From Yuukianura sp. NJ FZ-2021 (lineage: Eukaryota), in NCBI GenBank assembly GCA_046563655.1, contig CM102290.1, positions 3,162,001 to 3,226,000 of the forward strand: a stretch of 64,000 nucleotides of DNA, given 5' to 3'. The notes beneath the pieces are model-generated. The model did no database searches. It saw only the letters and a list, made by a program, of their open reading frames with translations, and was not told the DNA's origin. The first letter of the stretch is position 1; every line of letters starts with the position of its first letter. The translations under genes and the position numbers were made by a program. Positions 9,692 through 29,134 of the stretch are shown here, in pieces.

Positions 9692-12600
9692 TCATTCATG
9701 CCTGAAACAAATACAAACAACATAAAGTGATTTAGGAAAGATATACCGTAACTCATGTGTGCTGTCGCTTGTTAGACCAAGCGCCTTCTTCGTCTCTATC
9801 GTCACTAAAGAGACATAGGGTTCGAAACGCTGAGGAATTTCAACTTCAATTGTCTTCAAACAGCCTTTCAATTCATGAAATGGCACACGAAAACGCCCGT
9901 CCTCCAAATTAGTCTCATCTAGTTCGTCATCAGTTTCGACGTAGGAATGCTTGGTGATCCCAGTGAAACGAACACGCTGATTCGGACGCAAATTTAGTTC
10001 CTTGGGCTTCCGTACTTTTGGTGAAGTAGATGGACCAACTGGAACTTTGGCATTCTCTGGTAAAGTAATGTTCATCCCCAGCTTCTCAATTGCCTTCTGA
10101 GCTTCTGCGTACTTCCGGTCATACTCGGCCATGCTTGAATTTGGCAGCAAGTATCGAATTCCACTGAGCTTCCCACCATACTCAATGCAGGACTCTGTCA
10201 TCTTGACATACTGGGATTGCTCTTTTAGAAAAGTTGCTGTTCGTGATCGTACGATTGTTTCTAGTTTCTCTATCTTTTTCTTGTTGCCAGTCAGCTGTCG
10301 TTCAACATTAGCCAGTTGACGTGCGTAATAAATGCGCAAGTCGGTCAATTTCCTCTTTTGGAATTTTGCTGCAGATAGTTTCTTCAGTCTGACATTAAGT
10401 GCGTCAACCTTTGTAAGGCACTGCTTCCTATAACATAAAAACATCAACGTATATTACACCTTAAGCATTTGGAGTGTTTCCTTTCTCTAAATTTGAATTT
10501 GTAACTTACCTTTTGTTGACTAACTTCCGCTCCGCATTTCTCAAATTCAACTGAAGCTCTGACGTCTCCATCTTTCGACGAAGGGCGGCCTTCAACAGTC
10601 GTTCTCTCAGCAGTAGCTCCTTGTGCCGCTTCTCCTGGACAGTACCCTCAAGCGACTGAAATATAAGATTGATAGTTGTTGAATCCTTGGTAGGTTGCTG
10701 TTGAACATGTTCTTCTCCGTTGGCCATTTCAGTAGACTCGTTCACAGTGTCTCCATCCGGTTCCGCCAGGGCATCTCCAAACCTTTCATCAGTCGTGTCG
10801 GCTGCAGTGGTCGAATCTATAGATTCATTGGCTCCTAGTTGTTCTTCCTGCTCCGGAACTGGTAACACCTCTATAACATCCCACTCGAAATCAGTATCTG
10901 GAGTAGCATTCCTAGCACCAAACTGAATGTGGAAACCGATATCTTCAACGCCAGTTTCCGCCGCAGAGGGGCACATACATTCCTCATCCGAGATAGGTTC
11001 TTGCTTGATCTGGGTCACATCCAGCATATCCACTTCCATAGCTGTGCCAACTCCAGCTTGGCCACCAAATGTGTCTTCATGTTCTGTGTCTGCATTCGTC
11101 TCAACTGGCTCTTCTTCCACTTCAATTTTCGGCTGTAGTTGTTCTGTTTCCGGACCTTCTCGCCAATGAACTAGAAGAATTTGAATGTCTGGTTTGGCCT
11201 CAGTTTCATCACCTTCAACTTCCGTTTTCACTTTTACTTGATTGGTTTGAACAGATTCAGGTGTAGTAGTGGGGTAGAGAAGGAGCACTTCTGGTTTCGA
11301 GTCAATTTCAGTGTTTGAGACCGATTCCAGTTGTCCTGTTGTTAAGTTGATGTCTGAATCTGCATGAGTATCTTCAACTTCTTTCTTGACAGTTACACAG
11401 ACAATGGCATCCGGCTCAGTCGCTGGTTTCACTGGTTCTGCTGTGACGACTCTGCCAGAGTCATCCTCCAAAGTATTGACTTCCCTCTTCACTTCTACGT
11501 GGCCATCAAGAGGTTCCGTCATTCGTTTTACTTGTCCTGCAGTAACAACGCTGTCCGAATCGGCTTCTACATTCTCGACTTCCTTCTTGACTTCCACTTG
11601 ATCAAAACGACGTGCCTCCATAGTCGTTTCTGGTTGTTCGGCTCCTGGTGTCGAAATTGTATTTGCATCAGCATGATGAGTTTCAGTTTCTTTCTTTACT
11701 TCAACTTCACCAAAATGAAGTTCAACAATCGGTGCTGCTTGTTCTGTTCTGACGACTACGTCCGGCTCTAATTCAGCAGTTTCTACTTCTTTCTTAACTT
11801 CTAAGTGGCCAATTTCAACATCAGCGGACGCTTCGGACGATTTTGTTGTTTCGGCTGTGTCTGCGTCAGTAGGAACATTTTCAACTTCTTTTTTCACTTT
11901 GGATAGGTCAAATTCAACTTCAGTGTTGACTTCTGGCACGCCAGTTTCGACATTTCCACCGGACTCGACGCTGAGATCTTCAGTTTCTGACTTGGATTCC
12001 AATTCGACGTGATTCAATTCTTGAGCTCCTCTGGCTTCTGTTTCGGAGTAATTAGTTTGAATTTTTGTCGTTTCCGTGGAATCAACTTGAGGTGATTCGA
12101 GTTCTTGACGATGAAGATCAATTTCGTCTTCCGGCTGCTTATCTTTAGCGTTATTCGCTTTGTGCTTGCTGCCTGATTCAGTCTCATGGCTTCCCTCTCG
12201 ATCTCGTGCTGCAGCAGTGGTTAATGGGCCGTTTGTTTCCAAATTTGGTGTTACCACGTCTCGTTGCGAATGGTTTTGTTTAGACAACTTATTCACTTCC
12301 AGAGAATCACGATTCCCTTCTGAATGTGATGTTCTGACGACTCTTTTTCCTGGGGATGGTCTCTGGAAGCTCTTCGGAGATGGCTTATTGCTTAGGCTTG
12401 AAATCTCATTTGTAACGAACCTAGTTGACAATTCATGTCTTTCGACTTCGTTTGGATTGAAAAGATCAGTCTCCACTACTTGACGACGCCGGACATGGCG
12501 GTTTTCAGGGCCTTTTGCGTTTCCCCCCTTGGAATTCGTGAAGTTCATTTGAGCAGTTGAGGAAACTTCCATAGAATCCGCGTGATTATTTTGGAAATGT

Positions 12601-14943
12601 TCCTCGTTAGAAGAATTGTTCGTCTAAAATAAAATATTCCAAGTTTAAGTTATTGAACATAAAGACAATTACGGTTAGATATGAAATGAAGCTTACATGT
12701 GCAGACTTCGCCTCATTTCTGCCTTGACGAGATTCGCGTAAGTTCCGTCTATTGAATCTAGCCGCTACTGACTTACGTGTATGCTCAATAAAGTTGTCGA
12801 TATGAGATGAAACACTGGCTGGAATTGGAACTTCAGTAACTGAACGTTGTGAGCTGGAAACTTTTGACCGTTGATTGTCTGAGAGGTTCTCTTGAGAATG
12901 GCGACGGGAGTTGTTTCTACTAGTAAATCTTGGGGTAGAGTGAGACGAATGTTGATTGGACGAGGCATGCGATCTAGAAGACTCCTTTGTGCCAAATCTC
13001 ACTGTTCTGTTTCTATTCGGAGTGACTACGTCAGATTCATCGGAAGAAGTTTCACCACGGACGTTGATAATAATCGGTCGGATTCGTTTGCGTCTAGTAG
13101 CTAACTTGTTAGCAACCGTGTATCGCATGTTTCGGAAATCTGGTGGTGATTTGGATTGAAATGCCAACTGATTGTAAATTGTGCGCTGTATATTTGGGAA
13201 TCGATTAGTCGAGGACGATGGGCGTGCTGCATTAGATGTTGTTGGAGATGAAAATGCTGGTTTGGATAATGGCGAAGTTACTCCGTTTTGTCGTTTCCAT
13301 TTGTAGACAGAGCCGGTGGTGCTAACTCGTCTGGTGCTTGGATTTTCGCGAGTATCCTGGGAAATATTGACAACTAGATTTTCAGCCACATCTTTGAATG
13401 ATTCTCGCTCTGCTGCCAGTCTCGTCTTAGAGAGCTCGATCAAAAGTTTAGCACGGAGCTGATCCTCATCTTCATAGTGTTGAAATGATGGAGAATTCAC
13501 CAGAGTAACTTTAGGAGTAGGAGTTTCGTTAGAACTTCCTGAAGGTCCAGTTGTACAAGTGACGGTTTGAGATACTGACCGGGGTGAAATCATAGAACTT
13601 GACTGGGGTTGAACATGGCGCGTGGAAATTGACAGCGATTCTGGCATACTTTGCGGTGGAATGATAGAAACTCTCTGTATCGGGACATGGGATGCTCCCA
13701 AGTGAGGAAAACTTGGTCCTGGATCAAACGACGGTGTTGCTTGATTCTGTTGATAATTGGAATTCGGAATTTGCTCGACTACGAAAGTGGTGGCAAGGTC
13801 TCGTGGTTCGTAGGTCTTTGGTAGTTTTGACTTCTCATACATCCGATCCCACTCGGCTTCATGTGAGCGACTATTTCGACTGGAACTGCTGGAATCCTTG
13901 TCATGGAGTATCCTTGCCCGGCTTCTTGTATACTTTGGAGAATATTTCGGTGGGGAGTGTATCCGTCGACGTCTGCGGCTTGGAGATCTTGAATTGGAAC
14001 GATTTCTTTCCCTGAGGAAAGGAGAAGCTCTTCTTTTCTGAGACCGTCTATCGTCAGATTCATGGCGCGAATACCCAGACCGGTTAGTTTCTGTCCTAGA
14101 ACTGTGACGACTTCGATTCCTCTCATATTCGTGAATAGGTCGAATTTCTCCTACTAACTTCACGGTTTGGGTTTTAGGTACCGTGGTAGGCGGAGACTTA
14201 GCCTTGGTATTCTTTTGCTGTCGAGCCTTCGAACTTAGCGGCCGCGCTGATGGTTCAGGGGAAGAATAATGACTGGAAGACCTTGGAGAGAGTGAGAAGT
14301 CCTTTCCAAGACGAATTGCAGGAGGCGGGGGAGGAACAATTCCAAAAGGCTTCTGTGGTTCTACCGGCTTGATTGGATCAGCCGGAGGTGGTTCTGCAGC
14401 AGTGTCCAAGCGCTCGGCTTCTTTCGTGATTTCAGATCCTTGATCGGTGATGGCAGTGGCTGAAATTGGTAAAGGCATTACTGTAGTAGGACTTGCAGGA
14501 GGTAATTCTATTTCTTCTTCGGAGAAATGCTCTTCGCTATTGCAAGGTGAAACGTCCATATAAGTGCTATCGTAATTATCCTGTTGCAGGATACCAGGCT
14601 CAACTCCAATTCCTGTATTCTGTCGAGTTAGAGTAGCTTCGAGAACGTTTCGTCTTAGTTCAAGAATTTCTAAGTCATCCACAACATCAAGTGCATCAGT
14701 TTCATCTGAGCTTATGGATTCATTATCCGAAATGGTAACAACGGGCGGTCCGGCTTTTACTGGAGGTGGAAGCACGACAACGGAGTCGGAATCCGAGACT
14801 CCATCGTTAGAAATATCTTCTACATCATCTGGTAATAATTCATGTTTGAACATTTCAGAGCTCGGTGTGTACGGATCATCATCATCATCTGTAATCTCGC
14901 CTTCGGACACGGGTGACGTAGTTGCCTCTCTTCCAGTACTCAT
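9692..14943 (-). CDS. Large (~1700 aa) low-complexity nuclear protein carrying ZFC3H1-like N-terminal motifs and a coiled coil
   Basis: Three long exons (14943-12697, 12623-10510, 10427-~9692) join in frame across GT-AG introns. Ordered motifs EGEITDDD, LEILELRRNVL, QDNYDSTYMD, EDEDQLRAKLLIELSK, IIINVRGETSSDESD and IDNFIEHTRKS resemble ZFC3H1 motifs as I recall them. The exact C-terminal exon is uncertain. Confidence 0.6.
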
Positions 14944-17628: not shown

Positions 17629-17909
17629 GGTATCGATGCCTTGTGTCTAAGTTCTCAGATTCAAGTATTGTAAACTGTAAAGTTGACGCCGAAATCTCGT
17701 TCCTTTGAGATTTATGCTACCAATCTTCAGACCCCAGAAAATGGAACTGGACATTCAATTCGTCTTGGCCGGAGCAGAAGAATCTGAAACAGTCAGAGTC
17801 AGAATTTATTAGGCAATAGGTCAGAGGTTCGGATATCAAGTAAGGCCAAGCTGAACACGATAATTTGTCATGTCTTGGTGTCAAATTTATCAAAGGACTC
17901 ACTTCAGAG

Positions 17910-18170
17910 TGTGAAACAAACGATCCTCTCAACCAATAAGAACCTGAAATGAGGCACACAGAATAAGATGCTGGATACTGGTTTATTGAAAGATAAACCA
18001 GTCAATCAATAATAATACTAATATATATAAAATATGATACAAATGTTGATCCTGTGTCCTGTGTCCTCTCTCCTCGCCGTCCGCTCCAGGAGTGAAGCTG
18101 CTCCGCTCCGTCTTCCTCCTCTGGCGCTGGATCTGCTGAGTTGGGTGGTGGGGGGTGATCCTCCCTCACA
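17910..18170 (-). repeat. 3' LTR
   Basis: TGTGAGGG...TTTCACA on the minus strand, preceded by the polypurine tract. Contains a TATA-like TTTATATATA and AATAAA. Confidence 0.96.
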
Positions 18171-19202
18171 CTCTCCTCCGATTGAGCCCCTTGACCTCCT
18201 TCTGAGGGTCCTCCGACTGGAATAAGGGGTCGTCCTCGTCTCTGCATGAGTCGTCCTGGTTTCTGCATGAATGTTCCGGAATTCTGGGTCTGATGCGGGT
18301 TGTTCCGGAGATGGTTCTTCTTCTTCTGGGTGTGGTTGTGAAGTAATGACTTGTTCCGATTGAGATTCCGAATTGATGAGCTGAAGATTTTCTTGTTTGG
18401 GAACTGGAATGATTTGGAATTGTTCGTCTGGAATGAGATTGATGAGTTCATAGACAATTTCTGGGTCGGATTCTTCGTAAGTTTCACATTCAATCTCCAT
18501 GTCGCTATCTTCTGAGTCTGAATCTGAACTTGTATCGATGATTTGTCGAATTTCCGTCTCCTCTTCGCTGAAATTTTTCTCGTAGAATGGTTTTTGACTG
18601 GCGACGATTCCAAATTGTGATGGTGGGACGTTGTAGACACTTAAGAGGAGGCTGTTCGTATCTGAAATAACTCTCAGAATATCAGTTTCGTATTTGTGAG
18701 TATATTTTGTAATTTTTCGTAAGTCTTCATTTGTAATTGGTGATTTTTTAGCAATTTCTGCTATAATTTCGCTTTTTAAGATTTGGAATACTGGTTTATG
18801 GAGTTCCTTTGCTCGATACTCTGTCCACATGAATATTCTTCGAAACATAGCCTGGTAGATTTGATTTGACGTTGACATGTGCTTAGCTAACTCAGTTTCT
18901 AATGAACTTTTAGTGGGTTTTAGTAATGCTAAGCATCTTTTTGCAGAAATTGGTAACTTTTGATTTGTATTTTCGTCCGAAAACTCCTTCCTGAGGTCAT
19001 TGTTGAGCACATCGACCTCAATCTTCTCCACTAACACATTCCACAGTAAAATTAAGTAATACGTATTCAATCTGACGTATTCAAATAATTTGTTCGGTAC
19101 TCTACCGATTTTGTCTCTCGCAGACCAATCTTTCTTTGCTTGCTGTAAGTTTGAGTAACAGTATTTCTTGAGGTAACTAAAGTCAACTGGATTATTATAC
19201 AT
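18018..19202 (-). CDS. Retrotransposon accessory ORF (394 aa): RNase D/Rrp6-like Exo III segment, HRDC-like domain, acidic and Arg-rich tail overlapping the 3' LTR
   Basis: DWSAR...PNKLFEYVRLNTYYLILLW resembles the DW.xRP...YAxxDxxYL motif of DEDDy nucleases. MFRRIFMWTEYRAKELHKPVFQILKSEIIAEIAKKSPITNEDLRKI...HKYETDILRVI fits the HRDC helical pattern. Confidence 0.75.
   Translation of the reverse strand: MYNNPVDFSYLKKYCYSNLQQAKKDWSARDKIGRVPNKLFEYVRLNTYYLILLWNVLVEKIEVDVLNNDLRKEFSDENTNQKLPISAKRCLALLKPTKSSLETELAKHMSTSNQIYQAMFRRIFMWTEYRAKELHKPVFQILKSEIIAEIAKKSPITNEDLRKITKYTHKYETDILRVISDTNSLLLSVYNVPPSQFGIVASQKPFYEKNFSEEETEIRQIIDTSSDSDSEDSDMEIECETYEESDPEIVYELINLIPDEQFQIIPVPKQENLQLINSESQSEQVITSQPHPEEEEPSPEQPASDPEFRNIHAETRTTHAETRTTPYSSRRTLRRRSRGSIGGECEGGSPPTTQLSRSSARGGRRSGAASLLERTARREDTGHRINICIIFYIY
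18171..18179 (-). other. Polypurine tract (PPT)
   Basis: GGAGGAGAG on the minus strand directly abuts the TG of the 3' LTR. Confidence 0.8.
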
Positions 19203-19439
19203 TTTTACATTAGTTCACCAACTGTGACATATTCTACACTATTCTAACTTAATCTAACCCGGGGTACTAACTTAATCTATTATCTTAAACCTGCTGTCTG
19301 TAACTAACTGGTATTTTTGATCTGAGAATTTTCTTTTCTGGCTCTTTCGCTAATTGGTAATGGTTTTGAGTAACTTTCTGCCCCTTGATTTCGATTCATT
19401 TCAGACAACACTCTTTCGAATCAATATTGACACATTTTG

Positions 19440-20638
19440 TTAGCACTATTTCGATGTAAGTTGGATCATAACACTTTTTTGAGCTTTTCTCGTATGGTTT
19501 CGAACCCATATGATCAATTTCTATAAGTATTTTGTAAGTCATGACGATTGCACTCTGAACAACAGTTTGACACTAAAGTTCAATGAGGCTGACCTCTCTG
19601 ATCCATAACCTTTGTTTTTAAGGCTTCCGTATCTGCAGAATACTTCGTCCTCTAAACAATTTACTATCTTTTTTGCTGTCGTTTTTATACTGATTGAAAG
19701 CATTCCTGTCTTATTTTGAAAGTTATCGAACCTTGTTTGCTGACGAACCATACAAGTTTTGGCATAATTTGCGAGTTAGTGGTTCATGACACTTTAAGTT
19801 GAACGCACACTTAATGCTCTCAAGATCATTATTATAACTAGCACTTAAATTTTAATTCTATTATGTAATCTATTTGTTTTCCTATCTAAGTCGACATTTT
19901 CTTTTTCTGTACGTACTACGTTTGATTCATTTGATGGCAGCGCAATGTGCTCATATTCCGCGGGGCTAGACTGTTGCTCCCGGGTAAGGCCTGTATTTTC
20001 CTTAACAGATACGTTGACTTAGTCGTGAGTCCTGGCGTATCACTGGAACTATTTTGGAGATCTCATCTTTTTAGCAACTCTGTTTTTTATAACATAAATA
20101 ATTCTGACTACTGCGTCGTTTTAACAGCATAATTCTGCTTTTAGTTCGAGGACAATTGCTCGTTTCTTTCAATTTCTTGTTTTCAACCATTTTGGTTTTA
20201 GTAATTTCTTTCTGAATTCAATAATTTCTTTATCATTCTTTTACTCTTCTCGATTAAACTTTAACTAACTATACATTTGAAATTTGACAACGTGTCAGGT
20301 CATCGTCGAGCACGTCGACCTCACCTTGGGAGCATCCCTTATTTCTATTTCATCATCTACTAAATTTTGATCTGTATTAAGAGCTGTTACTGTTGCTCTG
20401 TAAACTGTTAAATGTACAACTTCGTTTTTTCCTTTTAATTTCAGGAATAACACGGCGGAAATCCCATAATCTGAACTGTCTGTCGCGGTATAAATCTTTT
20501 TGACTAATCTAAACTATGTAATGTGACATCTGCGCACATTGTCTTTTTTAATTTTTTAAATTCTTGAATACTAAATTTTAAATACTAAATCGCTGCAATA
20601 ATTATGGAGTAAATTGAGACTTGGTGGGACTCTGTCCC
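19440..20638 (-). pseudogene. Heavily deleted pol remnant (RNase H start and integrase fragments; no protease or RT visible)
   Basis: ~20575-20410 reads QEFKKLKKTMCADVTLHSLD*SKKIYTATDSSDYGISAVLF (gypsy RNase H TDAS motif, with a stop). ~19770-19620 reads NYAKTCMVRQQT and TTAKKIVNCLEDEVFCRYGS (integrase zinc-finger end and core fragments). Confidence 0.82.
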
Positions 20639-22375
20639 TTAGTAATTTAAATATTGATTTTCCTGGCTGTTTCCGTACTGGGGAGGAACATCGTCGAGCA
20701 CGTCGTTCCTCTTATAACCTCTACTGGTAAAAATTGGCATTGTATTTGGAGAAAAATCTTCGTGACTTTGGTCTCTGTGACTATTTTGTTGACGTGAGAT
20801 AGTGGAAAATTCTTGTCCTTGACCTTGGAGATTGACTTCTCGAGGATTATACGTCATCGCAACTGCGTTTACGTTCGGACAATCTCGAACAAAATGACCA
20901 CCCTGGTGGCATACAAAACAGGTTAACTCTTCGTTCTGTTGCGTAAAATCTCTGTTCTGACTTTCAAACTCTTGCGGCCGTTGTTGGTATGTACGTCTTC
21001 CTTTGTAACCGTGAACTCTATTATTTTGAGAATAAAAATTTTGATCTTTTGTCAAGTACTCTGGGGTGTTATTCCATTGTCTGATCACATAGGAATTGCC
21101 TCTAGAAGTTGGACCTGTGTATGTCCTATAACTCTGAGTTTCACTTGGTTGAATTTCATTGTTTTGAAAATTTTGAGAATTTTGAAAATTTTGACCTCTT
21201 TCCTGATTTCCGTGATAATTTCCTCGATTACTGTTCCCTCTGTATGTGTTGTTTTGAAATTTGGGATTTTTTGACTCTGTAGCGTTAGAATCTGTTTTCT
21301 GAGCTGAATTAAGTTCACTCTGCTCTACTGGAATAGTATTAACATGAGGAATTGGGATATACGTTTTCGTTCGTTTAGCCTCTGATCTCAAATCGTAAAT
21401 GACTCTTTTCGCTTCATTAATTAAATCCGTCGGTGTCCAGCTAGCACTATAGCCAATCAATGTCCGAATTGTAGGATACAGAGCGTCTCTGCATCTCCGT
21501 ACAATGACGTGTGTCTCTTCTTTTGGATTCACCTGATGACTTAGAGTAACCATTTCCCATACAAATGACTCTACAGACTCCGTGACTTTCTGTTTTCTGG
21601 TTAATAACAACCTTGCTCTGAATTCTTTTTCTGCGACTGAATCGTATTTGGCTATAAACGCTTTTTTAAACTCTGACCAAGTTTTTATGTCGTCTCTGAC
21701 ATTATCGAACCATGATTTGACCTCCTTTGTCATAATCGTTCTGATCAAGTACAAATACTTGTCTTTTGTATAATTTTGGCTTTGAAAGTACGACTCTACA
21801 TCATGTAAATAAGAAACAGCTGTTCGCTTTCGGTAGTCGTAGACTGGAATAGGAATATTCGGGTTAATACCCGTAATAACGTAGTTGACCTTTGGCATTC
21901 GATTTTTCTTTCTTGTCTCTACTTCACTTTCATCATCGCTACTTTTCTCTTCATCATAATCATCTGAATCTTTTTCTTGGTCTGAGACGTCGACTGAACT
22001 CACGTCGCCTCTGACATTTTTCTTTTTAGGAATTTTATCCAACCACTTTTTGAAATCTGACCATGTGTCTAAACCCGCTTGTTCTAGACCTAATTGTCTA
22101 ATGACTCGTTTCGGTATGTTCTGCTGACCTGTTTGTTCTGGTGAGATACTGGCTCTGGCTGCTACTGTAGCACGACTTGCACCTGGATTAGCTTGAGTCA
22201 TAACGTTCTGCGTTACATTAGAATTTGGCGGACGTTGACCTTGTTCTCTAATTCTGTCTCTATTATTTGCACGTTCGTCTCTAGTGCTGACATGTGATCT
22301 AGGTGGTCTATGAGGTGGTACGTTCGGTTCTTCATTTTCAGTATCATCAACTGTGTCTTGTTCATGATCACTCAT
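20639..22375 (-). CDS. gag: Gag polyprotein (578 aa) with capsid-like region and CCHC zinc knuckle
   Basis: VKSWFDNVRDDIKTWSEFKKAFIAKY and RKQKVTESVESFV (retrotransposon gag / major-homology-region pattern), plus a CFVCHQGGHFVRDC knuckle. The ORF is uninterrupted. Confidence 0.93.
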   Translation of the reverse strand: MSDHEQDTVDDTENEEPNVPPHRPPRSHVSTRDERANNRDRIREQGQRPPNSNVTQNVMTQANPGASRATVAARASISPEQTGQQNIPKRVIRQLGLEQAGLDTWSDFKKWLDKIPKKKNVRGDVSSVDVSDQEKDSDDYDEEKSSDDESEVETRKKNRMPKVNYVITGINPNIPIPVYDYRKRTAVSYLHDVESYFQSQNYTKDKYLYLIRTIMTKEVKSWFDNVRDDIKTWSEFKKAFIAKYDSVAEKEFRARLLLTRKQKVTESVESFVWEMVTLSHQVNPKEETHVIVRRCRDALYPTIRTLIGYSASWTPTDLINEAKRVIYDLRSEAKRTKTYIPIPHVNTIPVEQSELNSAQKTDSNATESKNPKFQNNTYRGNSNRGNYHGNQERGQNFQNSQNFQNNEIQPSETQSYRTYTGPTSRGNSYVIRQWNNTPEYLTKDQNFYSQNNRVHGYKGRRTYQQRPQEFESQNRDFTQQNEELTCFVCHQGGHFVRDCPNVNAVAMTYNPREVNLQGQGQEFSTISRQQNSHRDQSHEDFSPNTMPIFTSRGYKRNDVLDDVPPQYGNSQENQYLNY

Positions 22376-23276
22376 TTTGACTCTTTTCCAAAAAAATTAT
22401 AACCTTGATTTTATGAAGAAAATGTGAGTTTGAACTCTGAAGGTCGATCTGACAAACTCAATTGACCTTTTAGATTCAACTCTACATGTATAACCTTGAC
22501 TCTTTTACTTTATGTACAACGGTGACTGAATAACTTGACTTTGCATGAGTAACCTTGATTGAACTTGAACTGTGTCGTATTAACGTGACTAAATCTTTAG
22601 ACTGCATGAATAACCTCAAATAACCTTGTTGTAACTGTACTGTATGTTAACAACTCAACTGAAACTGTAGATTTGCTTACGAACACGAAATAACCTTGAT
22701 TTGACCTTATATTCTGTGACTCTGCTAGTTCAGTGTGAATAACCTTGTATTACGTTCGACTTAACTTTGCAACTATGAAACTGACTCGTACTGTGAACTT
22801 AAACTTCATAAGTTACTGTATAACCTTGAATTTAAATCATTTGTCTCTCAATATGCTAATTCTGTTAATTAACTTTGCTCTGGTACGTTATTTGTCGTAT
22901 CTTGTCTCTATATACACTCATATGACGTTATGCACATTTCACATGTAACCTTGAAATCACGTCACAACTCTAGTTCATTGACTCTACTTTGCATAACTAA
23001 CTCGTACTACGCGATCTGCTTCATGTCTTTGACTTATATGACCTCAGATTTGACCTTGGACACACTGGAGGGACATTGTTATGCACATCGTCCCTTTGAC
23101 TTAGACTACATTTCACATACCTTCCTTATGAGCGATGTAAGATGCTGAGATGTACAATTGGAGCTTCAGCGTAGCGTAGATCAGCGTTGAAGTGGAGTAG
23201 TGAGTGACCTCTGACCTTCTGATGCGTAGTTTGATGATTTAGTAAGGACTTCAGACTGAAGTTGGAGGTTCCGTAA

Positions 23277-23291
23277 CGTCACAGGTCGCCA
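23277..23291 (-). other. Primer-binding site, probably tRNA-Arg type
   Basis: TGGCGACCTGTGACG lies one base after the 5' LTR. TGG complements the tRNA CCA end, and TGGCGACC resembles tRNA-Arg-primed gypsy-group elements. Confidence 0.8.
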
Positions 23292-23292
23292 A

Positions 23293-23553
23293 TGTGAAAC
23301 AAACGATCCTCTCAACCAATAAGAACCTGAAATGAGGCACACAGAATAAGATGCTGGATACTGGTTTATTGAAAGATAAACCAGTCAATCAATAATAATA
23401 CTAATATATATAAAATATGATACAAATGTTGATCCTGTGTCCTGTGTCCTCTCTCCTCGCCGTCCGCTCCAGGAGTGAAGCTGCTCCGCTCCGTCTTCCT
23501 CCTCTGGCGCTGGATCTGCTGAGTTGGGTGGTGGGGGGTGATCCTCCCTCACA
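23293..23553 (-). repeat. 5' LTR
   Basis: Same 261-bp sequence as 17910-18170, followed on the minus strand by the PBS. Confidence 0.96.
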
Positions 23554-23764
23554 AGAGAGTGTACTGTTAAGTCGAAATGTCAACCGAAATTTTGCCAATG
23601 GTATGCTGCTTTATCAAATTTCAAAATTTTTGCGGTGTGTAGATTGGGTATGAATGTAGTATTTCGTTTTTTTTCCCGCTATTTTTAGAACAAATGAATG
23701 GAACTATACATAACTGTTTACTTCATACAAAAGTACTAATACTTGGACAACAATGGATGAGCAT

Positions 23765-23931
23765 TGCTATACTGTCCAGAGGCAGGCCACCCCTTCCACC
23801 CCCCTCCCCCTCCTCGTCCCCCCTCCGAACTTTCTGGAAGGTTCTGCTATACTGTCCAGAGGCAGGCCACCCCTTCCCCCCCCCTCCCCCTCCTCGTCCC
23901 CCCTCCGAACTTTCTGGAAGGTTCGGCTATA
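23765..23931. repeat. 80-bp tandem duplication, C-rich (G-quadruplex-prone on minus strand), each unit with a heat-shock element
   Basis: TGCTATACTGTCCAGAGGCAGGCCACCCC... starts at both 23765 and 23845. Several runs of 4-9 C. Confidence 0.9.
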
Positions 23932-24204: not shown

Positions 24205-24885
24205 GTCAATGGACAAGGACGACGGATGACATGGACATACTCACGGTGGACAAACTGTAAAGTTCAAGGGCCCTCACTGTTACCTGGATATTTCCGAAGA
24301 CTTCAAGACCCGACGTCGGTAAGTTGCCAATTTTTTTTTTTGTTTAGCTTATCCTTTCCTATCGTAATGGTTGACTTCAACTTTTGCGAAGTCAATCTCT
24401 GCTTGACCAATCTTCAATGGACAAGGAAGGACGACCTGGGATGCCCTAACAGTAACAGTACTCACCGTGGACATACTACAGAGCTCAAGTGCCAGGACTG
24501 GAATGTGGATATTTGCGAAAACCACCACACGGCGGCAAGTTTTTGGCAACTTCATTTCAGCTTCTCTTTTCCTATCACAATCGCAATGTTTGACTTCTTT
24601 TTGCGAAGTCAATCTCTGCTTGACCAATCTTCAATGGACAAGGAAGGATGACCTAGGACACCTTAAGTACTACCTGTGGACAACCTACAGAGCTCAAGTG
24701 CCAGGACTGGAATGTGGATATTTGCGAAAACTATGAAAACCCACCAGACGTCGGCAAGTTTTTGGCAACTGTGGATGTCAGCTTCTCTTTTCCTATCGCA
24801 ATCGCAATGTGTTTGCGTTCTTTTTGTGACGTCAATCTCTGCTTGACCAATCTGCAACGGACAAGGAAGGATGACCTAGGACACC
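24205..24885. repeat. Diverged ~220-bp tandem repeat (about 3 copies)
   Basis: GTCAATCTCTGCTTGACCAATCT...GGACAAGGAAGGA recurs near 24390, 24608 and 24830. CTACAGAGCTCAAGTGCCAGGACTGGAATGTGG recurs near 24476 and 24685. Confidence 0.8.
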
Positions 24886-25375: not shown

Positions 25376-25926
25376 CTGTTCAGACCAAATTCGAAATTTT
25401 CAAAAAAAAATCTTTTCTAGAAGTTGCAAATTTTGGAATTAGTTTTTGGAAATTACCATTTTTTCAGTATCAGCTGTTTGTAGACTTGGTAGATTTGGAT
25501 TTTTAGTGATGGCTTCTTTCTCCATGTCATCTCATCTTCCCTCTCTCGTTCTCGTTCATCTTTTTCCAAACACGAATTAACTGTTAAGGTGTGATTTGTG
25601 TTTCCGATGCACGAATATGAATAATAACAATTTGAAAGTAAACATGATAAGCACATGGAGCAACCAATCGGGTATGTCTATTCCTCCGAAAACCAGATAT
25701 TTCAGACTGCCGATTCGCAGGTTTTTACGAGTGTTATATTATAGGCATTATGTTACGAGTGTGGATAATATTTTTATCCGGTTTTATCCATAGGGACGGT
25801 TTTAGAAATCATGGGAAAAAAACTTGAAAAAATAAGGAATTTGAAATAGCGAATAGTCACGTCAATTTGCAATTGTGTAACAGGTCAACCAGGCATTTCT
25901 TTTCTCAGATTTTCAAAATTTGGGAT

Positions 25927-28656
25927 TAATTTCGAATTTAGTTTTTGGCAACTCGAATCTCAACTTAAAAAATTTACTTAACGTATCCGAAATTTCTTAA
26001 AACGTAAAAAGGGAAAACAATTCCTTTCTAAATAATATTTCTAAATTTTTTACTAAACCTTCTCTGCACCATCACTTAGGAACACATACTAAATCCCACA
26101 ACCGAAACCTACGGAATCACTTCTTGACGAATGTGTCCATGCACAGATCGTTTCAAAGTCTCAATCCGCATTGGTTCGGGGATGTGGTAAAAAACTTAGT
26201 CCCTGTGTCTCTTGCTTGAATGCGCAGCAGAAGTGTTATTATTAGAGTTAACGAGACTTGACTTGACGTTTAACGTGACTTTCGGTTTTTTTCTATACGC
26301 TGGAACATACGGCATTGTAGTAGATTGGGCGCGAGGACGGATCGAGGCTTGCAAGTAGCTGTTCAGGTGACACAGGGCAGGGAGGGGTGTGAATCTCTCT
26401 CGGTAAGTCCGGAGTGTGCCAGTTCGAGTGAACTGGGGCCGGAATCTCGAGCGTAGTCATTGACTAGTCCTCTGTCGTATGTATCTTCGTGTAGACTAAT
26501 TCCGAATTTCGTTTTTCACAACTCGAATCTCAACTTAAAAAATTTACTTAACGTAGCCGAAATTTCTTAAAACGCAAAAAGTGAAAACAACTCTTTTCTA
26601 AATAATAGTTCTAAATTTTTTCCTAAACCTTCTCTGCACCATCACTTAGGAACACATACTAAATCCCACAACCGAAACCTACGGAATCACTTCTTGGCGA
26701 ATGTGTCCATGCACAGATCGTTTCAAAGTCTCAATCCGCATTGGTTCGGGGATGTGGTAAAAAACTTAGTCCCTGTGTCTCTTGCTTGAATGCGCAGCAG
26801 AAGTGTTATTATTAGAGTTAACGAGACTTGACTTGACGTTTAACGTGACTTTCGGTTTTTTTCTATACGCTGGAACATACGGCATTGTAGTAGATTGGGC
26901 GCGAGGACGGATCGAGGCTTGCAAGTAGCTGTTCAGGTGACACAGGGCAGGGAGGGGTGTGAATCTCTCTCGGTAAGTCCGGAGTGTGCCAGTTCGAGTG
27001 AACTGGGGCCGGAATCTCGAGCGTAGTCATTGACTAGTCCTCTGTCGTATGTATCTTCGTGTAGACTAATTCCGAATTTCGTTTTTCACAACTCGAATCT
27101 CAACTTAAAAAATTTACTTAACGTAGCCGAAATTTCTTAAAACGCAAAAAGTGAAAACAACTCTTTTCTAAATAATAGTTCTAAATTTTTTCCTAAACCT
27201 TCTGTGCACCATCACTTAGGAACACATACTAAATCCCACAACCGAAACCTACGGAATCACTTCTTGACGAATGTGTCCATGCACAGATCGTTTCAAAGTC
27301 TCAATCCGCATTGGTTCGGGGATGTGGTAAAAAACTTAGTCCCTGTGTCTCTTGCTTGAATGCGCAGCAGAAGTGTTATTATTAGAGTTAACGAGACTTG
27401 ACTTGACGTTTAACGTGACTTTCGGTTTTTTTCTATACGCTGGAACATACGGCATTGTAGTAGATTGGGCGCGAGGACGGATCGAGGCTTGCAAGTAGCT
27501 GTTCAGGTGACACAGGGCAGGGAGGGGTGTGAATCTCTCTCGGTAAGTCCGGAGTGTGCCAGTTCGAGTGAACTGGGGCCGGAATCTCGAGCGTAGTCAT
27601 TGACTAGTCCTCTGTCGTATGTATCTTCGTGTAGACTAATTCCGAATTTCGTTTTTCACAACTCGAATCTCAACTTAAAAAATTTACTTAACGTAGCCGA
27701 AATTTCTTAAAACGCAAAAAGTGAAAACAACTCTTTTCTAAATAATAGTTCTAAATTTTTTCCTAAACCTTCTGTGCACCATCACTTAGGAACACATACT
27801 AAATCCCACAACCGAAACCTACGGAATCACTTCTTGACGAATGTGTCCATGCACAGATCGTTTCAAAGTCTCAATCCGCATTGGTTCGGGGATGTGGTAA
27901 AAAACTTAGTCCCTGTGTCTCTTGCTTGAATGCGCAGCAGAAGTGTTATTATTAGAGTTAACGAGACTTGACTTGACATTTAACGGGACTTTCGGTTTTT
28001 TTCCTATACGCTAGAACATACGGCATTGTAGTAGACTGGGCGCGGAGACGGATCGAGGCTTGCAAGTAGCTGTTCAGGTGACACAGGGCAGGGAGGGGTG
28101 TGAATTTCTCTCGGTGAGTCCGGAGTGTGCCAGTTCGAGTGAACTGGGGCCGGAATCTCGAGCGTAGTCATTGACTAGTCCTCTGTCGTATGTATCTTCG
28201 TGTAGACTAATTCCGAATTTCGTTTTTCACAACTCGAATCTCAACTTAAAAAATTTACTTAACGTAGCCGAAATTTCTTAAAACGCAAAAAGTGAAAACA
28301 ACTCTTTTCTAAATAATAGTTCTAAATTTTTTCCTAAACCTTCTGTGCACCATCACTTAGGAACACATACTAAATCCCACAACCGAAACCTACGGAATCA
28401 CTTCTTGACGAATGTGTCCATGCACAGATCGTTTCAAAGTCTCAATCCGCATTGGTTCGGGGATGTGGTAAAAAACTTAGTCCCTGTGTCTCTTGCTTGA
28501 ATGCGCAGCAGAAGTGTTATTATTAGAGTTAACGAGACTTGACTTGACATTTAACGGGACTTTCGGTTTTTTTCCTATACGCTAGAACATACGGCATTGT
28601 AGTAGACTGGGCGCGGAGACGGATCGAGGCTTGCAAGTAGCTGTTCAGGTGACACA
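25927..28656. repeat. Tandem array of a 570-bp unit, ~4.8 copies
   Basis: AACTCGAATCTCAACTTAAAAAATTTAC recurs at ~25950, 26520, 27090, 27660 and 28231. Units are nearly identical and contain no ORF of 60 aa or more. Confidence 0.97.
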
Positions 28657-29134
28657 CGGCAAATGAAAAGCCTAGTAGTTATTACTGTAATGTCTGTAGT
28701 GTGAGCGGGATTTGAAAAGCGCTTTTATTCTGAGGATTAGTGTATCCTCAGTTTGGCCGGTATGCTCAGCATGTGTTTTGTTTAGTACCTCCATTGAAAA
28801 AGGAATCAAATGGGAATGCTTGGTGCCTCGTGCTATCTTCTAACCATCGTGCCAATTTCTTTACGTGTGCCGGTGCCGGTCACACGTTAAAACGTTGCAG
28901 AGAAACATCGATACTTTAATTAATACTGGTATTCTGTTAAGACGAAGCTCGTATGTTTGTTTTCTGGTTTTCGATTGATCAAGGTCTACAAGGTTAACCA
29001 GAGTTCACAAGAAGCAGAAAGGTAACGCAACATACCATGCGATAAGTTACCTATCAGTAATTATGGACTTTGACGTAAACATGTAACCCTTCATCTCGCA
29101 AATGTCATTAAGGTAAACTCACATACCAAGAACT

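Follow-up and report, generated by a model that had tools for sequence, protein, structure and literature searches.

A long terminal repeat (LTR) retroelement of 5,644 bp, located on the minus strand at 17910–23553 of a 64,000-nucleotide stretch of Yuukianura sp. NJ FZ-2021 (contig CM102290.1; the whole stretch is referred to here as the window), houses a third open reading frame, ORF3, that derives from an exonuclease gene of the Rrp6/EXOSC10/RNase D type. What is left of the ancestral protein is the end of the exonuclease domain and the HRDC domain that follows it. The reading that we favour, and to which we give about an even chance, is that the element is a recent non-autonomous deletion derivative of a Ty3/gypsy-type element, in which ORF3 has been kept together with gag as a non-catalytic, HRDC-based nucleic-acid-binding accessory.

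Domain composition and ancestry of ORF3

The ORF3 ATG is preceded, 4 codons upstream, by a stop in the same frame (18018..19214 from stop to stop), and from the ATG the gene runs to its own stop without interruption. At its distal end the frame reads through the polypurine-tract-like GGAGGAGAG into the U3 region, so that codons 345–394, the last 50, lie inside the 3′ LTR and match the 5′ LTR copy at 100% as well. The frame is open beyond chance in both halves: when the first 600 nt are shuffled, it stays open in 0 of 20,000 trials, and for the last 582 nt in 2 of 20,000. Codon usage correlates with that of gag at 0.68 in the called frame, against 0.46 and 0.54 in the other frames. An initial annotation, made from the letters of the window, had described an uninterrupted frame of 394 codons between a ruined pol and the 3′ LTR, with about 50 codons in U3; coordinates, repeats and shuffles agree with that description. 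Over the C-terminal half of ORF3 a second minus-strand frame is open for 212 codons (18002–18640), which fits the low T content there (17.5%) and does not speak for a second gene.

The clearest match is to the HRDC domain. Pfam profile PF00570 aligns with residues 118–170 at E 1.7e-6, its score of 28.3 bits exceeding the cut-off (23.8), and covers profile positions 3–59 of 68. The NCBIfam model of RNase D (rnd) aligns with a longer region, residues 37–173, at E 8.2e-6; the score is far under the cut-off set for the full-length protein, which a fragment would not be expected to reach. Searched with phmmer against 1.84 billion representative proteins, residues 1–200 gave four matches at E ≤ 1e-3. 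Two of these proteins carry both an exonuclease and an HRDC domain by Pfam and align collinearly with ORF3: P0003 (E 3.2e-5, query residues 23–181 on 273–423 in a single stretch), which sits in an oat protein cluster and is uncharacterised according to its source, and P0004 (E 5.2e-4, query residues 24–175 on 295–438), whose best solved relatives are Rrp6/EXOSC10, with Rrp6 structures such as 2HBJ and 3SAF. The remaining two matches are HRDC-repeat proteins. The top match, P0001, has an odd architecture: in its 525 residues four HRDC repeats are combined with a CCHC knuckle and a nuclease domain of the GIY-YIG type. The pairing of GIY-YIG and zinc knuckle is reminiscent of mobile-element proteins.

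Pairwise identity of ORF3 to P0003 and P0004 is 26–28%, and BLASTP similarity runs out near residue 181. Residues 1–62 by themselves score 58 against the corresponding part of P0003 and 76 against that of P0004, compared with 23.5 ± 4.4 for shuffled sequences, none of 5,000 shuffles scoring as high in this targeted comparison. Among PDB sequences, human EXOSC10 was the only match to residues 1–200 at E ≤ 10; it is not significant (E 0.44) and is collinear, with residues 11–155 on 408–546. Conversely, tblastn of two Rrp6-like proteins on the whole element finds ORF3 only (E 3e-11 and 5e-13), everything else being at E ≥ 0.5. The nearest Atlas cluster of ORF3 is ‘exosome component 10-like’ (0.93), commonest in Platyhelminthes, which serves as a host lead only. 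As judged by these alignments, residues ~10–185 of ORF3 follow, in the same order, the Exo III helix, the linker and the HRDC domain found in Rrp6/EXOSC10/RNase D, and the gene derives from an exonuclease gene of this type. Beyond residue ~185, where an acidic region is followed by an Arg-rich tail, Pfam finds no family match.

Other searches returned no closer relative. Word-indexed protein searches with the whole of ORF3 (proteins of 216–690 amino acids) and with residues 1–200 (proteins of 691–2000 amino acids) gave nothing at E ≤ 0.01, and an alignment-based search among proteins of 1172–3345 amino acids gave only four long exonuclease-domain proteins, two of them also with HRDC, which are uninformative. 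The whole of ORF3 gave two unrelated chance-level matches among PDB sequences. No relative turned up when metagenome contigs were scanned with ORF3 and with gag, or viral contigs with ORF3.

Of the Exo III motif, ORF3 has D25–W26, Y42 in the position of the catalytic Tyr, and Y49–L50. A 4-residue insertion follows the DW pair, and Asn46 occupies the position at which P0003, P0004 and human EXOSC10 have the Exo III Asp, leaving ORF3 without the Y-x3-D pattern. The protein starts in mid-domain, by alignment ~15 residues ahead of the DW pair and within the last helix region of the exonuclease fold; the ~170 residues that open this domain are absent. With them are missing Exo I (DxE) and Exo II (D), which are found neither in ORF3 nor, by tblastn, as remnants in any frame of the DNA upstream of the ATG, and Pfam DNA_pol_A_exo1 (PF01612) has no match on ORF3 at E ≤ 1. 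Owing to the absence of Exo I and Exo II and the replacement of the Exo III Asp by Asn, ORF3 is predicted to be non-catalytic: with this set of residues it cannot be a nuclease. The initial annotation had already noticed the DW…Y…YL order with Asn in place of Asp, the HRDC-like helices after Exo III and the lack of visible Exo I and Exo II motifs, and had proposed a catalytically dead protein of Rrp6/RNase D-type origin; the alignments and profile searches lead to the same view throughout.

The position of ORF3 between pol and the 3′ LTR is the one feature that would suit an env-like protein, an interpretation that we find scarcely conceivable. ORF3 has no hydrophobic segment (the top 19-residue Kyte–Doolittle mean is 1.23), matches no fusion-protein family in Pfam and is homologous to a nuclear RNA-processing enzyme. 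The env reading was rejected on the missing hydrophobic segment.

The carrier element and its relatives

The element has paired TG..CA LTRs, a short target-site duplication and tracts resembling a primer-binding site and a polypurine tract (Table 1). Relatives were taken from contigs of public DNA, in which five runs, from two studies and under two organism labels, carry the element, the best-matching of which may be the source sample itself; four runs were compared, and contig depth was not taken as copy number. In all four, contigs join 17905 directly to 23554 and leave out 5,648 bases, 4 letters being common to both sides of the joint. As the omitted bases correspond to the element plus one copy of the duplication, the element boundaries are fixed and the insertion is a true integration. 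The joint represents an allele without the element or else an unoccupied paralogous site. The insertion is recent, its two LTRs being 100% identical. A scan of the 64-kb window found no tRNA gene, and so no primer tRNA for the tract resembling a primer-binding site.

The surroundings of the insertion site are rich in repeats. Directly upstream of it are a C-run-rich 80-bp tandem duplication (23765–23924) and three repeats of ~220 bp (24236–24885), and five tandem units of ~570 bp with 94–100% identity lie just outside the element at 25924–28661. The flank itself is probably repetitive, as suggested by the many contig joints and variants there.

Table 1. Features of the LTR retroelement, listed 5′ to 3′ on the element strand, with window coordinates.
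Feature	Position	Strand	Basis
Target-site duplication, upstream copy (CTCT, element strand)	23554..23557	−	Sequence reading; 4 letters at the empty-site joint 17905->23554 can be placed on either side
5′ LTR, 261 bp, TG..CA	23293..23553	−	Direct-repeat comparison, 100% identity
Primer-binding-site-like TGG... tract, 1 nt past the 5′ LTR	23277..23291	−	Sequence reading
Leader with 8 sense-strand copies of CAAGGTTA	22400..22953	−	Motif count
gag, 578 amino acids, intact	20639..22375	−	Pfam Retrotrans_gag; CCHC knuckle
pol scraps: reverse transcriptase/RNase H junction piece, RNase H start, integrase-like bits	19203..20638	−	Frame reading; weak profile match
ORF3, 394 amino acids, ATG start	18018..19202	−	Open reading frame list; shuffles
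ORF3 residues 10–57, last part of the DEDDy exonuclease domain (Exo III region)	19032..19175	−	Alignments; shuffle test
ORF3 residues 118–170, HRDC domain	18693..18851	−	Pfam PF00570
ORF3 residues 216–330, acidic Ser/Pro/Gln-rich region	18213..18557	−	Composition; 29 D+E against 6 K+R in 115 residues
ORF3 residues 331–394, Arg-rich tail, crossing the polypurine tract into U3	18021..18212	−	Composition; 13 K+R in 64 residues
Polypurine-tract-like GGAGGAGAG, abutting the 3′ LTR	18171..18179	−	Sequence reading
3′ LTR, 261 bp	17910..18170	−	Direct-repeat comparison, 100% identity with the 5′ LTR
Target-site duplication, downstream copy	17906..17909	−	Sequence reading; empty-site joint

Between the 5′ LTR and gag is a leader of 917 nt, in which copies of CAAGGTTA recur ~50–125 nt apart. 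This motif has 11 matches in the window, 8 of them in the leader, compared with 2.4 expected, and none of 100 shuffles reaches 11; the leader repeats could be host-factor binding sites or a packaging signal. By sequence reading, a GTATGT donor-like site at 23120 in the leader and AG sites no more than 100 nt upstream of the ORF3 ATG are candidates for the splicing of a subgenomic mRNA. The gag product matches Pfam Retrotrans_gag (PF03732; E 8.8e-7, 29.5 bits) above the cut-off and has one readable CX2CX4HX4C knuckle, for which the profile scores stay under the cut-off. Its nearest Atlas cluster is Ty3 capsid-like and commonest in Rotifera (0.95), which is a host lead only and no test of kinship.

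In the 1,436 nt between gag and ORF3 the longest sense-frame run is at most 78 codons, and the pol scraps found there carry a stop, a frameshift and internal deletions, with a stop and a frame change falling inside the 150 nt between positions 20411 and 20560. The initial annotation, which had called this pol shredded, is thereby upheld. A weak match to the RT_RNaseH_2 profile (E 0.053) is the sole computed support for the pol parts. RNase H and its junction with reverse transcriptase were picked out by what we take to be Ty3/gypsy motifs, and on the same assumption the order, with RNase H ahead of the integrase-like bits, agrees with that of gypsy elements. The description of the element as a gypsy retroelement, also made in the initial annotation, stands as far as the LTR element is concerned; the label gypsy would follow from gag alone, pol being too broken for classification. 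The window copy is non-autonomous, its protease, reverse transcriptase and integrase being gone. Since it was recently inserted and lacks these enzymes of its own, the ones that moved it must have been provided in trans.

Other copies preserve more of pol. Contigs leave the window sequence at 20411, 20560 and 19388, and the letters past 20411 and 20560 in those copies continue RNase H and the reverse transcriptase/RNase H junction, as we presume from Ty3/gypsy motifs. The window copy has therefore been internally deleted and fuller relatives exist. A further contig break, at 19353, was dropped as a structural difference, as it merely reflects a more diverged copy.

These deletions raise the question of whether ORF3 is itself a product of them. 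On this account, which we consider unlikely while treating it as a serious candidate, autonomous relatives encode a complete DEDDy exonuclease with HRDC as their ORF3, as do the Juno and Vesta elements of rotifers, and the stump in the window was left by the deletions that removed pol and has no role of its own. In keeping with it, homology to Rrp6 extends to the first ~10 residues of ORF3, which together with the nearby upstream stop places the beginning of coding in mid-domain; the contig breaks at 20411, 20560 and 19388 demonstrate internal deletion of the copy; and rotifer ORF3s are reported as RNase D-like DEDDy exonucleases with intact invariant residues (PMC5408684). Less easily accommodated is the contig that departs at 19388, which has the same 186 nt before the ORF3 ATG as the window and no Exo I- or Exo II-like coding there. 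Coming from one contig, it gives a weak hint that the short start of ORF3 is not an artefact of the deletions in the window copy. The change of the Exo III Asp to Asn and the 4-residue insertion, moreover, point to a long non-catalytic evolution, and diverged sister versions hold the frame.

Such diverged versions of ORF3, with the frame preserved, exist in the public contigs. In one run, two contigs across 18617–18854 show 0 and 27 differences from the window, and a second run contains a piece on 18268–18641 with 33 differences. The three diverged ORF3 pieces (27–33 differences) have no gap letters, whereas four diverged pieces on the pol scraps at 19203–20638 (7–33 differences) have 5–10. 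Runs under organism label A contain versions identical to the window in addition to ones that are ~10% diverged, and a run under organism label B has 1 difference in 516 nt at 18759–19274 and 0 differences in 365 nt at 19990–20354; the two labels are compatible with one species, with close relatives and with transfer.

Signs of constraint and possible roles of ORF3

Nineteen variant places in ORF3, a small sample drawn from the 40 of 955 variant places chosen by the tool, comprise 9 synonymous and 10 nonsynonymous changes, where ~21% would be synonymous if change were random (binomial p ~0.01). Third codon positions account for 12 of the 19, and a crude ratio of nonsynonymous to synonymous substitution rates (dN/dS), from site counts, is ~0.3. 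Taken with the absence of insertions and deletions from the diverged versions and with the wholeness of gag and ORF3, this lends no more than modest support to the proposal of the initial annotation that the module is kept under selection.

Several observations weigh against a maintained function, beginning with the size and choice of the variant sample. The variants are unpolarised, pooled from mixed contigs and uncorrected for transition bias, and two of the three diverged ORF3 pieces, both from one sample, may be a single sequence. With identical LTRs, the window copy has not existed long enough for its intact state to demonstrate selection, and the reading of ORF3 into U3 looks accidental. 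The protein collections searched contain no close relative of ORF3, so that conservation across species cannot be shown. AlphaFold2, the structural check that the initial annotation had proposed, gave mean predicted local distance difference test (pLDDT) scores for residues 1–200 of 50.9 alone and 41.8 with an 8-row alignment; as both models are of low confidence, they provide no evidence that the domain stump and HRDC fold. In rotifer elements, the ORFs whose variation was examined showed no significant departure from neutrality, according to the published text (PMC5408684).

Part of this evidence would equally suit a neutral passenger, that is, a fragment of a host EXOSC10-type mRNA gained by template switching and open only through the youth of the lineage. 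The presence of the gene as a fragment only, the entry of its C-terminal tail into U3, the identity of the LTRs and the lack of folding support from AlphaFold2 are all in line with such an origin. We nevertheless hold it to be decidedly unlikely. Identity to the best Rrp6-like proteins is low, with none closer among the 1.84 billion representatives, and any capture would therefore be old or from an unsampled donor; in addition, the ORF3 frame is whole beside a broken pol, and the diverged versions combine a synonymous excess with zero insertions and deletions.

We thus return to ORF3 as an accessory retained with gag. Because gag and ORF3 are whole while pol has decayed, because sister copies preserve the frame and lean towards synonymous changes, and because codon usage is gag-like, ORF3 has probably been kept for being helpful to the element in cis. 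The third gene of the family comes from an exonuclease of the Rrp6/EXOSC10/RNase D type; ORF3 and gag would have been retained in cis for their benefit to the element, with protease, reverse transcriptase and integrase provided in trans by pol-bearing relatives. HRDC, which occurs in RecQ helicases and in RNase D, is a module that binds nucleic acids. As it is the only well-supported domain of ORF3, nucleic-acid binding is the most economical role, and the protein is most likely to bind the RNA, cDNA or particle of its own element through HRDC. If selection on ORF3 is confirmed, its non-catalytic form narrows the possible roles to binding, whether of RNA, of cDNA or of partners in the host, with trimming set aside.

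Binding could also be directed against the host. The nuclear exosome acts on retrotransposon transcripts, and, as the initial annotation had suggested by way of example, a non-catalytic protein from the Rrp6 family might compete with host Rrp6/EXOSC10 for substrates or partners and so shield the element’s RNA from the nuclear exosome. Rrp6 binds Rrp47/Mtr4 through its N-terminal PMC2NT domain, and the exosome core through a C-terminal association region. Neither was detected in ORF3: for PMC2NT there is no space N-terminally, and Pfam finds HRDC only, and for the C-terminal region Pfam finds no match and BLASTP similarity ends near residue 181. The C-terminal region of Rrp6 is generally poorly conserved, making its absence weaker evidence than that of PMC2NT. 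Among the literature matches listed, no title or abstract describes an Rrp6-derived retrotransposon decoy. We therefore regard competition of this kind as highly improbable. Stated more broadly, as a dead Rrp6 fragment that acts in a pol-less gag and ORF3 lineage either as a dominant-negative or substrate shield against host nuclear RNA surveillance or as a dedicated chaperone for the 3′ end of the element’s RNA, the idea is still very unlikely. If true, it would represent a retroelement counter-measure fashioned out of part of the enzyme by which its own transcripts are degraded.

Elsewhere in the window, three long collinear ORFs on the minus strand at 9692–14943 (250, 688 and 778 amino acids) are separated by gaps of just 62 and 35 nt, which gives them the look of a single host gene whose introns are very short. 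Their proteins are of low complexity, acidic and Ser-rich, and match no Pfam family.

Relation to known accessory genes

LTR retrotransposons seldom carry extra genes, and those that exist reveal what retroelements need besides gag and pol. For RNase D-like exonuclease cargo, descriptions have so far been limited to bdelloid rotifer elements, with no function assigned. Rodriguez, Kenefick & Arkhipova (2017) reported RNase D-like DEDDy ORF3s in the bdelloid LTR retrotransposons Juno and Vesta (PMC5408684), and the initial annotation, which knew of no described gypsy lineage with such cargo, was in this broad sense mistaken. As set out in the text of that study, a DEDDy ORF3 was gained on two or more occasions, by Juno and by Vesta, and is common to Athena/Terminon elements; its authors argue that the DEDDy ORFs make up a pool of the retroelements’ own instead of having been captured recently from hosts, and suggest 3′-end processing as a role for ORF3 (PMC5408684). 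A later opinion article counts a DnaQ-like exonuclease among the known accessory domains of LTR elements, in the passage concerned (PMC6338049). Among the literature matches listed for DEDDy and retrotransposon ORF3, the rotifer study and one review alone mention DEDDy. Among those listed for HRDC with LTR retrotransposon, gypsy or retroelement, the titles, abstracts and passages include no eukaryotic retrotransposon with an HRDC gene, and the matches that name both HRDC and a retroelement in title and abstract concern prokaryotic retroelements.

The window element shares with Juno and Vesta, as these are described, an extra ORF after pol, near-identical TG..CA LTRs and a gag with a CCHC knuckle, and its 261-bp LTR is within their range of 159–551 bp (PMC5408684). 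In both cases the extra ORF comes from the RNase D/Rrp6 DEDDy group and is without transmembrane or coiled-coil features. The comparison is with the published descriptions of the rotifer ORF3s, and in these the invariant residues are intact, with DEDD changed to DEED, whereas the window ORF3 has the Exo III end only, with Asp changed to Asn. The HRDC domain, the best-supported part of the window ORF3, has no occurrence in the main text of the rotifer study (PMC5408684). The carriers also differ, the one in the window being a pol-less element of gag and ORF3; the dUTPase between protease and reverse transcriptase that is a hallmark of Juno and Vesta lies in pol, which is deleted here.

With cellular Rrp6/EXOSC10 and bacterial RNase D, ORF3 has in common the collinear arrangement of Exo III helix, linker and HRDC, at 26–28% identity. 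Unlike these enzymes, it is borne by an element and lacks the opening ~170 residues of the exonuclease domain, PMC2NT and a recognisable C-terminal exosome-binding region. Loss of catalysis in a DEDD module, with RNA binding thought to be kept, is known from Maelstrom and EXD1, as cited in the rotifer study (PMC5408684); those proteins retain the whole fold and are encoded by host genes of the piRNA pathway, whereas ORF3 is a stump of the fold and element-borne.

HRDC proteins also accompany reverse transcription in prokaryotes, where, according to the part of the report that concerns them, stand-alone HRDC accessory genes occur in 14 of 372 diversity-generating retroelements (Wu et al. 2018; PMC5758913). 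Like ORF3, these genes encode a small, non-catalytic HRDC protein beside a reverse-transcribing element, presumed to bind nucleic acids. Diversity-generating retroelements are prokaryotic and undergo mutagenic homing, and the likeness is functional only, with no common descent implied. HRDC proteins may be a recurring helper of reverse-transcribing elements. What the window element adds is that exonuclease-derived cargo may take the form of an HRDC module without catalysis and can persist beside gag in a pol-less lineage. Set beside these systems, ORF3 is a rarer, nuclease-dead and HRDC-centred version of the exonuclease cargo described in rotifer retrotransposons.

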